Assembly (NCBI GenBank): GCA_025059775.1
Contig: JANXCW010000003.1
Location: 80,284 to 144,283 of the forward strand
Reading direction: 5' to 3'
Source: Armatimonadota bacterium
Lineage (GTDB): Bacteria > Sysuimicrobiota > Sysuimicrobiia > Sysuimicrobiales > Sysuimicrobiaceae
DNA length: 64,000 bases
Of the stretch, positions 4,240 through 63,903 are shown piece after piece. Numbering within the stretch: position 1 is the stretch's first letter; each line of letters begins with the position of its first letter. The notes under the pieces were generated by a model. That model was not told where the DNA came from, ran no database searches, and saw nothing but the letters and a program-made list of their open reading frames with translations. The position numbers were made by a program, and so were the translations under genes.

Positions 4240-4815
4240 CTAACGGAGCTCCAGGGACTCTACGCGAAGTTCAAGTTCCTCGAGTACAACGCGGAGTTCG
4301 TAGTGGCCTATGGGAACCTGGGAGAAGGCGAACTGCCCGAGGTCGTCCAGGGGAGCCGAGAAGGAGAACGAGGCCGAGGAGAGGATCACCTCTCCTCGAG
4401 GAGGGGTCCTGTACCCTCCGAGGATTCCGAACACGGATCTGCAAGCGGGATCTCGGGGGTCTCCGGCCACCTCCAGGGTGAGCGTGTATCCCTCTTCCGC
4501 GTATGCGGCTCGGGAGGGGGACGTTTCTCCCCGGAAGGCGAAGGCAGGGGGAAGGGAGGGGATCGGGCGAAGCAGAAGGATTCGACGCCCGAGCTGGGGG
4601 ACGCCCGTTGCCAACAGAGCGTCCAGCCACCGGAGCTCCTCCCGGCAGTAGGGGCAGACGGTCAGGTGGTCCGGGATCTCCGGAGCCTCAAGGAGGCCGA
4701 GACGCCACTCCCCCAACCGCTCCGGGGGAGGGCAGTGGAGACGGTACAGCCGTCGGTGGAGGGTGTCCTCCAGGGGATCCGGGGGGTGGGCAGGTTGCGC
4801 CGGACGCTCCGACAT
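4240..4815 (-). CDS. Putative zinc-finger (zf-HC2 / ZAS-type) anti-sigma-factor-like protein
   Basis: ATG at 4815..4813, 4 nt upstream of the SLH gene start. Contains the H-x3-C-x2-C motif (DHLTVCPYCREELRWL) characteristic of zinc-binding anti-sigma factors. The rest has no recognisable domain. Confidence 0.55.
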   Translation of the reverse strand: MSERPAQPAHPPDPLEDTLHRRLYRLHCPPPERLGEWRLGLLEAPEIPDHLTVCPYCREELRWLDALLATGVPQLGRRILLLRPIPSLPPAFAFRGETSPSRAAYAEEGYTLTLEVAGDPRDPACRSVFGILGGYRTPPRGEVILSSASFSFSAPLDDLGQFAFSQVPIGHYELRVVLEELELRVESLELR

Positions 4816-4941
4816 AAATCCCCCAATCGAGACAAATGGTTTTCGATTGCCTATTCGAACTCAATGAGCGGGATCCTGCGAACCTGGCAAGGAAGTTGCT
4901 GGAATTCCGACAGCGGATCTGGAAAACATTTGATCGCATTA

Positions 4942-4962
4942 TTGCACGGTTTAACCGTGCAA
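4942..4962. promoter_or_regulatory. 21-bp near-perfect palindrome TTGCACGGTT-T-AACCGTGCAA (candidate operator)
   Basis: Seen directly in an AT-rich divergent intergenic region between the minus-strand operon (start 4815) and the XRE regulator gene. 10-bp arms around one central base. Confidence 0.45.
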
Positions 4963-5008
4963 ATTTCTCGGTCTAATTCGATGTACTGTCAGGTAAAGTT
5001 AGCCATTT

Positions 5009-5017
5009 TGATAGAAT
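5009..5017 (+). promoter_or_regulatory. Extended -10-like element TGATAGAAT upstream of the XRE regulator gene
   Basis: TG-n-TAGAAT lies ~20 nt upstream of the GAGGAGGGG RBS. No good -35 is seen. The AT-rich context fits a promoter. Confidence 0.3.
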
Positions 5018-5037
5018 AGATCGTGAGGAGGGGATGG

Positions 5038-5607
5038 ATGGGCCGGCTGGTGGCGGAGGTTCTGCGCACGTTCGGATTACGGGTTTACGAGGCCCGCACG
5101 GCCGCGGGGCTCTCGCAGCGGGCGCTGGCGAGGCTGCTGGGCTTGCGGAGCGCGGTAGCGGTGGGAGACTGGGAACGGGGTAAGGCCTTCCCCAAGTTCC
5201 TCACCTTCCTTCGCTTGTGTGAGGTCCTCAACCGGCCCCCGGCGTATTTTCTGGAGGGCTATACGGAAGCCCCCGCTCAGGAGGGGACCGTGGAGGCGCT
5301 GGAGCGCCTGGAGGCGAAGCTGCACCAGCGTCATCTGGAGCTCCTCCACCGGCTGGAGCAGTTGCCCGCGGAAATCAGTGGGTGCATACCTCCCGACGAA
5401 ATCCTCTCCTTCCTGCAGAAGATGGACTTCGAGCGGGATGTGCTCCCACACCTCCCCCTCGACCTCCGCGCCGCCCTTCGGGCCCGGAAGCTTCCCCCCG
5501 AATTCGAGGAGGCCGCTTACAGCATCGCCCGCAACGCCGCCTGGCATGCCTGGGAGGTGACCCGTGAGGAGGTTCGGGATTGGGTCCGGAAGCGGAGAAG
5601 GGTCTGA
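5038..5607 (+). CDS. XRE-family helix-turn-helix transcriptional regulator with uncharacterised C-terminal domain
   Basis: ATG 5038 after GAGGAGGGG. N-terminal HTH_XRE signature (RTAAGLSQRALARLLGLRSAVAVGDWERGKAFPKFLTFLRLCEVL). A GTG at 5023 is possible but has a worse RBS. Confidence 0.75.
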   Translation: MGRLVAEVLRTFGLRVYEARTAAGLSQRALARLLGLRSAVAVGDWERGKAFPKFLTFLRLCEVLNRPPAYFLEGYTEAPAQEGTVEALERLEAKLHQRHLELLHRLEQLPAEISGCIPPDEILSFLQKMDFERDVLPHLPLDLRAALRARKLPPEFEEAAYSIARNAAWHAWEVTREEVRDWVRKRRRV

Positions 5608-5697
5608 AAACCGTCAGCGGCTGCGCTTCCAAAGTGACCTCGGTCGGTTCCCCGGCCTCGACCCCTCTGGATCGCTTGCCGCTGACGGTTTTCTTTT
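5607..5697 (+). terminator. Long stem (15 bp) with structured loop and U-tract, candidate terminator for the XRE gene
   Basis: AAAACCGTCAGCGGC (5607-5621) pairs with GCCGCTGACGGTTTT (5678-5692) and is followed by CTTTT. The loop contains an internal GGTCGG/CCGGCC hairpin. Lies between convergent genes. Confidence 0.35.
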
Positions 5698-5700
5698 ACC

Positions 5701-5743
5701 ACGGATTTAAAGCAAAAAGCAATGGGGAACATATGTTCCCCAT
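5701..5743 (-). terminator. Rho-independent terminator of the minus-strand DUF402 gene
   Basis: 22-nt perfect palindrome ATGGGGAACATATGTTCCCCAT (5722-5743) directly after the DUF402 stop (5745-5747). On the minus strand it is followed by UGCUUUUUGCUUUAAAU. Confidence 0.55.
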
Positions 5744-5744
5744 C

Positions 5745-6239
5745 TCACCAGGCCCCCCTCTCTGCGGCGGAGAGCAGGCGGTGGGTGGCGGCGGTCACCT
5801 CCTTCACGATGGAGGGCCAGCGAGCAAGGATCTCCGCAAGCGCCTGCTGCGCCTGGACCCTCAGGGTTTCCGGGAGGGATCCCATCTCCTCCTCGTCCAG
5901 CACCTTCGGCTGTGCATTGGGCAGAACAAGCACGTCGGCTGCCAGGTCGAGCCAGGCGATCCGATCCGCCTCCAGCCGTACCTCCCCGCTCAGATTGATG
6001 TACCACCCCAGGGTTTCCCCGTGCGGTGTGACCCAGTGGTACACGTTGTACGGACGGTCCACCCAGAAATGGCCATAGGTGACCGTGCCGGGATCCAAGG
6101 ATAGGTCGTCCACCCGCCAGGGGTGCGTGATCACGTAACGGAGCACCACGCGGTCTGCGTCCCGGAGGAGGAGTTCGCACGGGAACACCTCCTCGCGGCC
6201 GTCCGGTCGCCGTTTGATCTCCAGGAACAGGACCCCCAT
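5745..6239 (-). CDS. DUF402-family protein (nucleoside di/triphosphatase-like fold)
   Basis: ORF 5745..6419, but the conserved part starts at the internal ATG at 6239 (MGVLFLEIKRRPDGREEVFP...). The upstream 60 codons are S/R/P-rich read-through, so I prefer the 6239 start. DUF402-like core (YGHFWVDRPYNVYHWVTPHGETLGWYINL). Confidence 0.65.
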   Translation of the reverse strand: MGVLFLEIKRRPDGREEVFPCELLLRDADRVVLRYVITHPWRVDDLSLDPGTVTYGHFWVDRPYNVYHWVTPHGETLGWYINLSGEVRLEADRIAWLDLAADVLVLPNAQPKVLDEEEMGSLPETLRVQAQQALAEILARWPSIVKEVTAATHRLLSAAERGAW

Positions 6240-63715: not shown

Positions 63716-63903
63716 GGATCCTGGCACGCTTCTTGCCGTCCCCCCCTGCAGGTGGGAAGGCGGATGTGCCGTGGAGGCGTGGCTGGACCGGGTTTCGGTG
63801 TCCGGGGAGGACTTCCGGGGGGTCGCCCGGAGGGGGCTCGTGGTGGTCCTGCTTGGAGGTCCCCTGGCAGCCGTCCTCGCCCTGGCCGCGCACCCCGCCT
63901 GGG

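Follow-up and report, generated by a model that had tools for sequence, protein, structure and literature searches.

A perfect but species-specific palindrome, probably not the XRE operator, in the conserved divergent control region of an XRE-family regulator from Sysuimicrobiota

Is a perfect palindrome in front of a regulator gene the operator of that regulator? The question is raised by a 21-bp repeat in the intergenic control region between a gene for an XRE-family regulator and a divergent gene for a zinc anti-sigma-like (zf-HC2) protein, within a 64,000-nucleotide stretch of DNA (the window) from an Armatimonadota bacterium that GTDB places in the Sysuimicrobiaceae (phylum Sysuimicrobiota; assembly GCA_025059775.1, contig JANXCW010000003.1, forward-strand positions 80,284 to 144,283). 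A preliminary description, made from this sequence alone, had portrayed the region as an AT-rich divergent control region and the palindrome as the likely operator of the XRE regulator, which would thereby control both sides. The first part is borne out, as the intergenic region has a GC content of 45% against 68% in the window and the divergent XRE/zf-HC2 layout is conserved. The palindrome itself is real and non-random, yet species-specific, and it is probably not the operator of the XRE regulator. We give about an even chance to the reading that it is a young repeat, restricted to this species and placed in a spacer of free sequence, which would have arisen by template switching and would stand outside the conserved control logic. 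Operator calls made on a single sequence thus need a conservation check: here conservation is lowest in the striking repeat, and the elements that relatives share lie next to it in imperfect form and are easily overlooked.

The palindrome, TTGCACGGTT-T-AACCGTGCAA, is an inverted repeat without mismatch in a 10+1+10 layout, as first described, and its half-site centres are spaced 11 bp apart, about one helical turn. Its distance to the ribosome-binding site (RBS) of the XRE gene, given earlier as ~75 bp, is about right (74 nt from the centre and 63 nt from the end). When the 222-nt intergenic region was simulated 20,000 times with an order-1 Markov model, 0.045% of the simulated regions contained a perfect palindrome of this class (arms of 10 nt or more, loop of 0-1 nt); the whole 64-kb window holds two such palindromes against 0.33 expected. 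A separate assembly of the locus (L024, Logan SRR15826900) shows no difference over 4842 nt, and an artefact of a single assembly pipeline can thus be dismissed as the source of the palindrome. A search with the exact XRE protein likewise gave nothing beyond an identical contig, which is uninformative for comparison. If loops of up to 6 nt are allowed, about one perfect palindrome with 10-nt arms is expected per 64 kb by our estimate, which would agree with pure chance, without any particular origin or function. However, the probability within the 222-nt region is only ~4.5e-4, and two further species-specific perfect palindromes lie within 1.5 kb; an origin by chance alone is highly improbable.

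A scan of genome and metagenome collections yielded 22 orthologous loci (numbered with L), 17 of which are non-redundant; the closest public genome is a metagenome-assembled genome of Candidatus Sysuimicrobium calidum. The XRE orthologues are 73-98% identical, with 98% in L001 and 95% in L009, the loci of two sister species. The palindrome is absent from L001, L009 and every other orthologous locus compared. The aligned position reads TTGTAAGTTCTTACCAAACAT in L001 and TTGATCGACTAAAGCAAACAA in L009, where 5/10 and 6/10 arm pairs are left, respectively, and where the predicted hairpin has -0.1 kcal/mol (L001) or is missing (L009). At the DNA level, the window and L001 agree at 90% of positions in the XRE gene and at 68% in the intergenic region, but at only 57% in the palindrome stretch. 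The recognition helix of the XRE protein (RSAVAVGDWERGK), on the other hand, has only two variable positions, both conservative (A/G and D/E), and is the same in the window, L001 and L009; a site on the DNA that the XRE protein reads would accordingly be expected to recur in the relatives. If the loci are lined up by the -10 element of the XRE gene, the palindrome falls within a spacer of constant length that is unalignable between lineages. Because the distance from a neighbouring conserved dyad (GCGAAC-N4-GTTCGC) to the -10 element is kept while the intervening DNA is unalignable, the palindrome is assigned to a fixed-length spacer of free sequence. Three distant XRE homologues (P0028, P0059 and P0052; 45-56% identity) were left out of this footprinting; in their context a GGACT gene follows, and the zf-HC2 gene and the small RNA gene described below are absent.

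The proposal that the palindrome serves the XRE protein in the control of both its own and the divergent gene is attractive on three counts: a perfect dyad of operator size stands in the regulator's own upstream region, the helix-turn-helix (HTH) domain is closest to autoregulatory proteins of the Cro/C1 type (controllers of restriction-modification systems, P22 c2), whose palindromic operators also lie upstream of their own genes, and the XRE and zf-HC2 genes are always paired. Conservation speaks against it, since the palindrome is missing from L001 and L009 despite the unchanged recognition helix, and the dyad conserved across the family is another one, with a same-core dyad also at the small RNA promoter in the closer clade. 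Unlike the operators of Cro/C1-type proteins, moreover, the palindrome is clear of the -35 and -10 elements and is not conserved with the protein: 50 nt separate its end (4962) from the -10 hexamer of the XRE gene (5012), and the candidate promoter of the zf-HC2 gene is ~80 nt away, so that it overlaps neither core promoter, a position that ill suits a repressor of either. No second copy of the half-site TTGCACGG (10-mer and 8-mer searches), and no further copy of the full palindrome or of a gapped dyad, was found in the 64-kb window; the exact palindrome is also absent from a viral contig collection. The operator assignment is thus not supported, and we regard it as quite unlikely. The left arm was also considered as a -35 element (TTGCAC) and rejected, as no usable -10 element lies behind it on either strand.

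How, then, might a perfect palindrome have come to stand in this spacer? The 64-kb window contains four perfect palindromes whose arms reach 10 nt or more, and three of them lie within one 1.5-kb module, where ~0.02-0.03 would be expected by our estimate. The second species-specific palindrome, CGAGGAGAGG-ATCA-CCTCTCCTCG, is situated within the zf-HC2 coding sequence, and the third, ATGGGGAACAT followed directly by ATGTTCCCCAT, at the promoter of the small RNA gene downstream of the XRE gene (Table 1). All three are imperfect in L001 and L009, and in all three the left arm is as in the relatives while the changes that create complementarity are in the right arm. At 4942-4962, AAA of the right arm (L001 = L009) has become GTG, three adjacent bases that pair with CAC of the left arm. 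The palindrome at 4375-4398 was perfected by synonymous changes in R140 (AGG to CGA) and G141 (GGG to GGA). At 5722-5743 at least one base has changed (GTTCGCC to GTTCCCC), and the left arm belongs to a near-invariant motif, CAATGGGGAAC. No palindrome enrichment of this kind is seen in the other 15 lineages. Because the three sequences are mutually unrelated, they are not sites for one protein.

Correction of quasi-palindromes by template switching, raised in highly transcribed DNA, is documented (PMC7202029, PMC3820800). By this route, known as quasi-palindrome mutation, a switch of template while DNA is being synthesized would turn an older imperfect repeat into a perfect one, and we infer such an origin for the palindrome. 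The likeness to the template switching described in E. coli and yeast (PMC7202029, PMC3820800) lies in clustered changes of one arm that create complementarity, found here at three sites; the difference is that the process is deduced here from a comparison of three species, and that the general mechanism leaves the clustering within 1.5 kb unexplained. If a genome-wide comparison confirms it, the three lineage-perfected palindromes would be a clear natural example of quasi-palindrome correction.

Several considerations weigh against a young repeat without function. A 10+1+10 dyad with half-sites 11 bp apart is a typical target of a dimeric HTH protein, and the centre near -72 is a position used by upstream activators. 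A function acquired later may be compatible with a mutational origin. The rest of the window carries palindromes at chance level only, whereas template switching as a general process predicts a genome-wide spread; the local clustering therefore needs an explanation of its own, which may be heavy or convergent transcription, or selection for hairpins. The search for further copies covered 64 kb of the genome, and comparison with two sister species leaves the ancestral states ambiguous at several arm positions. A newly gained binding site, or selection for a hairpin in this species, are live alternatives.

The former would make the palindrome a site gained by this species for a different dimeric regulator, either an upstream activator of the XRE promoter or an enhancer-binding protein of the NtrC type that would serve the sigma-54-like promoter. 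The statistically unusual palindrome and the position of its centre, ~72 nt upstream of the predicted XRE start site, would suit such a regulator, as would a conserved sigma-54-like block 43 nt to the left. Within the palindrome there is also TGCAC-N9-GTGCA, which we take to resemble NtrC half-sites. However, the window holds no second copy, and the palindrome lies downstream of the sigma-54-like element while enhancer sites are usually upstream. The sister species have the sigma-54-like block but not the palindrome, and neither a GAFTGA nor an RpoN-box signature, as expected of an enhancer-binding protein and of RpoN, is present in the window or in any orthologous locus sequence. A site for another regulator is accordingly a minor possibility.

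Another alternative treats the palindrome as an RNA hairpin, a weak terminator or attenuator of transcripts from the sigma-54-like element (start ~4911) that would insulate the XRE promoter. The predicted hairpin (-13 kcal/mol, z-score -3.9) is followed by AUUUCUC and lies ~30-50 nt downstream of the predicted sigma-54 start site, as this would require. Against it, the stem is there but the T-run is too weak for an intrinsic terminator and the terminator scan reports no site, the hairpin is missing from the corresponding stretch of L001 and L009 even though the sigma-54-like block is present in both, and an Rfam scan of 4600-5300 on both strands gave chance-level matches only, with no match to a family. 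Such a role is very unlikely. The palindrome, read as a young repeat, is by itself an ordinary and minor species-specific feature, and the surrounding module is more important.

Table 1. Features of the XRE/zf-HC2 locus (positions in the window)
Feature	Position	Strand	Description
zf-HC2 (zinc anti-sigma-like) gene	4240-4815	-	191 amino acids; C-terminal beta-sandwich
Second species-specific palindrome	4375-4398	none	CGAGGAGAGG-ATCA-CCTCTCCTCG; within zf-HC2 coding sequence, amino acids 140-147
Divergent intergenic control region	4816-5037	none	222 nt; between zf-HC2 (minus) and XRE (plus) genes
Two-part ECF-like motif	4833-4858	-	TCGAAT-N14-CATTTG; 17 nt upstream of zf-HC2 start codon
GGATCC-centred palindrome copy	4868-4879	none	GCGGGATCCTGC; conserved form (G)CAGGATCCTG(C)
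Sigma-54-like -24/-12 element	4884-4900	+ (toward XRE gene)	CTGGCAAGGAAGTTGCT; TGGCA-N6-TTGC
Degenerate dyad copy	4922-4937	none	GAAAAC-ATTT-GATCGC; 3/12 mismatches to GCGAAC-N4-GTTCGC
21-bp palindrome	4942-4962	none	TTGCACGGTT (4942-4951), T (4952), AACCGTGCAA (4953-4962)
Extended -10 element of XRE gene	5009-5017	+	TGATAGAAT; hexamer TAGAAT 5012-5017; TGn + TAnnnT pattern
XRE-family regulator gene	5038-5607	+	189 amino acids; Pfam HTH_3; HTH, long helix, helical C-terminal domain
Conserved structured small RNA gene	5604-5700	-	~83 nt, RNA ~5686 to ~5604; convergent with XRE gene; stretch takes in the -10 but not the -35
Third species-specific palindrome	5722-5743	none	ATGGGGAACAT then ATGTTCCCCAT; at small RNA promoter, just past DUF402 stop

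The orthologous intergenic regions of the 17 non-redundant loci are 166-344 nt long and share several elements. The first is the -10 element of the XRE gene. The extended -10-like element of the preliminary description, TGATAGAAT, stands 20 nt ahead of ATG 5038, and its hexamer is kept as TAGAAT, rarely TAGAAC or TAGAAA, in 17/17 loci; TAGAAT is also the top enriched hexamer (14 loci against 1.1 expected). The promoter proposed in the preliminary description is thus well supported. The XRE transcript is predicted to start near 5024. A consensus scan of 4600-5200 for promoters and terminators gave no match, and it misses this conserved promoter because a good -35 element is lacking.

The second shared element is the dyad GCGAAC-N4-GTTCGC, the halves of which (GCGAAC/GTTCGC) are enriched among the orthologous intergenic regions. 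The best match ends 72-75 nt upstream of the -10 element in 16/18 loci scanned; in the window it ends 74 nt upstream of the -10 element and 4 nt before the palindrome. One mismatch is found in L002, L003, L010 and L019, and most relatives have 1-3. A second dyad with the same core recurs at a constant location behind the XRE gene in the window (5727-5738), L009, L010, L011 and L002, where it lies at the small RNA promoter (clade A and L002). GAAC-N4-GTTC sites are not enriched in the 64-kb window, and lexA, recA and uvrA were not identified in the sequences analysed. Judged by this pattern of conservation, no candidate for a conserved operator is better than the dyad, which is to be preferred to the palindrome. 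The SOS box of Gram-positive LexA (Cheo box) is CGAAC-N4-GTTCG, and thus has the same core as this dyad, though not as the palindrome. However, the dyad lies ~90 nt upstream of the XRE start site and off the core promoter, and the window copy has three mismatches. Since both dyad sites are within the conserved module, the XRE protein is somewhat more likely than LexA, the alternative, to be the protein that would read the dyad.

Two elements lie closer to the zf-HC2 gene. A motif of the form TCGAAA-N14-CGTTTG occurs with up to three mismatches in 12/17 loci, in ten of these 17-38 nt before the zf-HC2 start codon. It resembles the AAC...CGT pattern of promoters read by extracytoplasmic function (ECF) sigma factors, and the copy in the window is a candidate ECF-sigma-type promoter of the zf-HC2 gene. 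The second is a GGATCC-centred palindrome, the hexamers of which (AGGATC, CAGGAT and GCAGGA) are enriched in 9-10 of the 17 loci.

The sigma-54-like block CTGGCAAGGAAGTTGCT does not differ between the window, L001 and L009, and among the closest species no other block of the region is as well conserved. L011 and L012 also retain its pattern, TGGCA-N6-TTGC, which is disrupted in L010, so that 5/6 loci of the closest clade have it. The block shares the invariant GG and GC of sigma-54 promoters, 11 nt apart, and fits a candidate sigma-54 promoter pointing at the XRE gene; the more distant clade lacks it. The pattern has two matches in the window against 0.33 expected, the second being TGGCACGCTTCTTGC at 63722 (63721-63737) on the plus strand, in an intergenic region. 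Both matches are intergenic, on the plus strand and have GGATCC just upstream. A minus-strand reading of the block as a -35 element (TTGCCA) was rejected, because neither the window nor L001 has a -10 element 16-18 nt further on.

Going from the zf-HC2 gene to the XRE gene, the conserved control logic would thus run from the ECF-like promoter motif of the zf-HC2 gene to the GGATCC-centred palindrome, then, in the closest clade only, to the sigma-54-like -24/-12 block, then to the GCGAAC-N4-GTTCGC dyad at its set distance from the -10 element, and lastly to the TAGAAT promoter of the XRE gene. We infer these promoter assignments, like the protein proposed to bind the dyad, from the shared positions and patterns.

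The XRE gene most likely starts at ATG 5038, which is preceded by GAGGAGGGG at 5025-5033; GTG 5023, which opens the mechanically called open reading frame, is a less likely start. The window gene has a strong Shine-Dalgarno sequence, and several orthologues are apparently leaderless: in L002, L004, L015 and L019 the start codon is only 10-12 nt past the -10 element, implying leaderless messages. Genes for controller proteins are commonly leaderless or nearly so, as several XRE orthologues appear to be. The Cro/C1-type HTH domain covers XRE residues 17-71, and its nearest solved relatives in the PDB are C.AhdI, C.BclI and P22 c2. In an AlphaFold model of the protein (pLDDT, the predicted local distance difference test score, 82.6), the HTH domain is followed by a long helix and then by a C-terminal domain that is also helical. 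A Foldseek search with this model matched the HTH domain only; the C-terminal region of ~110 amino acids, which sets the protein apart from Cro/C1-type repressors, had no structural match. The gene lists obtained also showed no restriction-modification genes, in contrast to the setting of the controller proteins.

In the zf-HC2 protein, C28, H50, C54 and C57 (motif C-x21-H-x3-C-x2-C) are invariant in 17 orthologues, and zinc anti-sigma factors (ZAS), such as RsrA with its partner SigR, are the nearest known parallel. Pfam zf-HC2 is matched in 11/17 orthologues (best E = 1e-4) and CarboxypepD_reg, a beta-sandwich, in 17/17, all with sub-threshold E-values. The window protein itself has no above-threshold Pfam match, no match among PDB sequences and none in NCBIfam, and a word-based homology search with it found only four relatives. 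It differs from ZAS proteins in its beta-sandwich and in that no membrane segment is seen; moreover, no sigma factor gene is adjacent in the loci examined (two left neighbours being without Pfam match), and the conserved partner is an XRE-type regulator. What is observed is thus a soluble protein with a zinc anti-sigma motif, always paired with an XRE regulator and without an adjacent sigma gene; for a zinc anti-sigma domain to have a partner other than a sigma factor would be out of the ordinary. The XRE and zf-HC2 genes form a divergent pair wherever a locus extends to the upstream side, which implies a functional link. The neighbours seen across the loci comprise the XRE gene, SLH/SPOR/NAGPA genes, asd, aspartokinase and QRPTase. 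The SLH/SPOR/NAGPA gene behind zf-HC2 is present in the closest relatives only and CopC in L001 only, while in the other clade the zf-HC2 gene stands alone, with a convergent housekeeping gene as left neighbour. An extension of the regulator's control to the SLH/NAGPA and CopC neighbours is therefore not supported.

These observations invite a tentative and rather improbable picture, in which the locus would be an undescribed three-part module: an XRE regulator, a divergent zinc anti-sigma-like protein without a nearby sigma factor, and a convergent small RNA of ~83 nt. The zinc-finger protein might control the XRE regulator in place of a sigma factor, and the regulator might act through GAAC-N4-GTTC dyads, both those in front of its own gene and those at the promoter of the small RNA. 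The burst of palindromes, three hairpin-forming sequences that arose in one lineage, might mark a template-switch hot spot caused by convergent transcription, or else selection for DNA or RNA hairpins in this species. Neither sigma factors nor transcription is mentioned in the main Sysuimicrobiota paper. Candidatus Sysuimicrobiota is without a pure culture, and the module, with its candidate elements of the sigma-A, ECF and sigma-54 types, offers concrete targets for transcript mapping and binding studies.

The small RNA gene lies behind the XRE gene. In every locus the XRE stop codon is followed in the same order by a nested-hairpin element, (A)TTATAC and the near-invariant motif, which on the minus strand would read as a promoter with -35 TTGC.. 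and -10 TATAAT (TGGTAAAAG in the window; -10 at 5693-5698 and -35 at 5717-5722). The 3' end of the RNA would be formed by a closing stem and a U-run, a terminator overlapping the stop codon of the XRE gene. In the consensus fold of 27 pairs, 97% of the cells are standard pairs and compensatory change is seen at nine pairs; its covariation score of 0.35 exceeds those of shuffles (0.17) and of slid controls (0.065 at most). Only the minus strand accommodates the invariant G-U pairs. With a covariance model, each locus yields one copy and no more, as do two loci outside model building (examples are L001 4567-4663, L003 3909-4006 and L007 573-669), and no copy beside the distant XRE homologues. 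The small RNA has no Rfam match, and its core pattern is absent from the viral contig collection. A short open reading frame at ATG 5722 (MGN...) was rejected as a gene, since L005 has an early stop and L013 no ATG. On the minus strand, the stretch 5722-5743 stands directly after the DUF402 stop codon (5745-5747) and is then followed by UGCUUUUUGCUUU (5703-5721 side). By this placement, the third palindrome looks like a terminator hairpin of the convergent DUF402 gene that also overlaps the upstream edge of the small RNA promoter.

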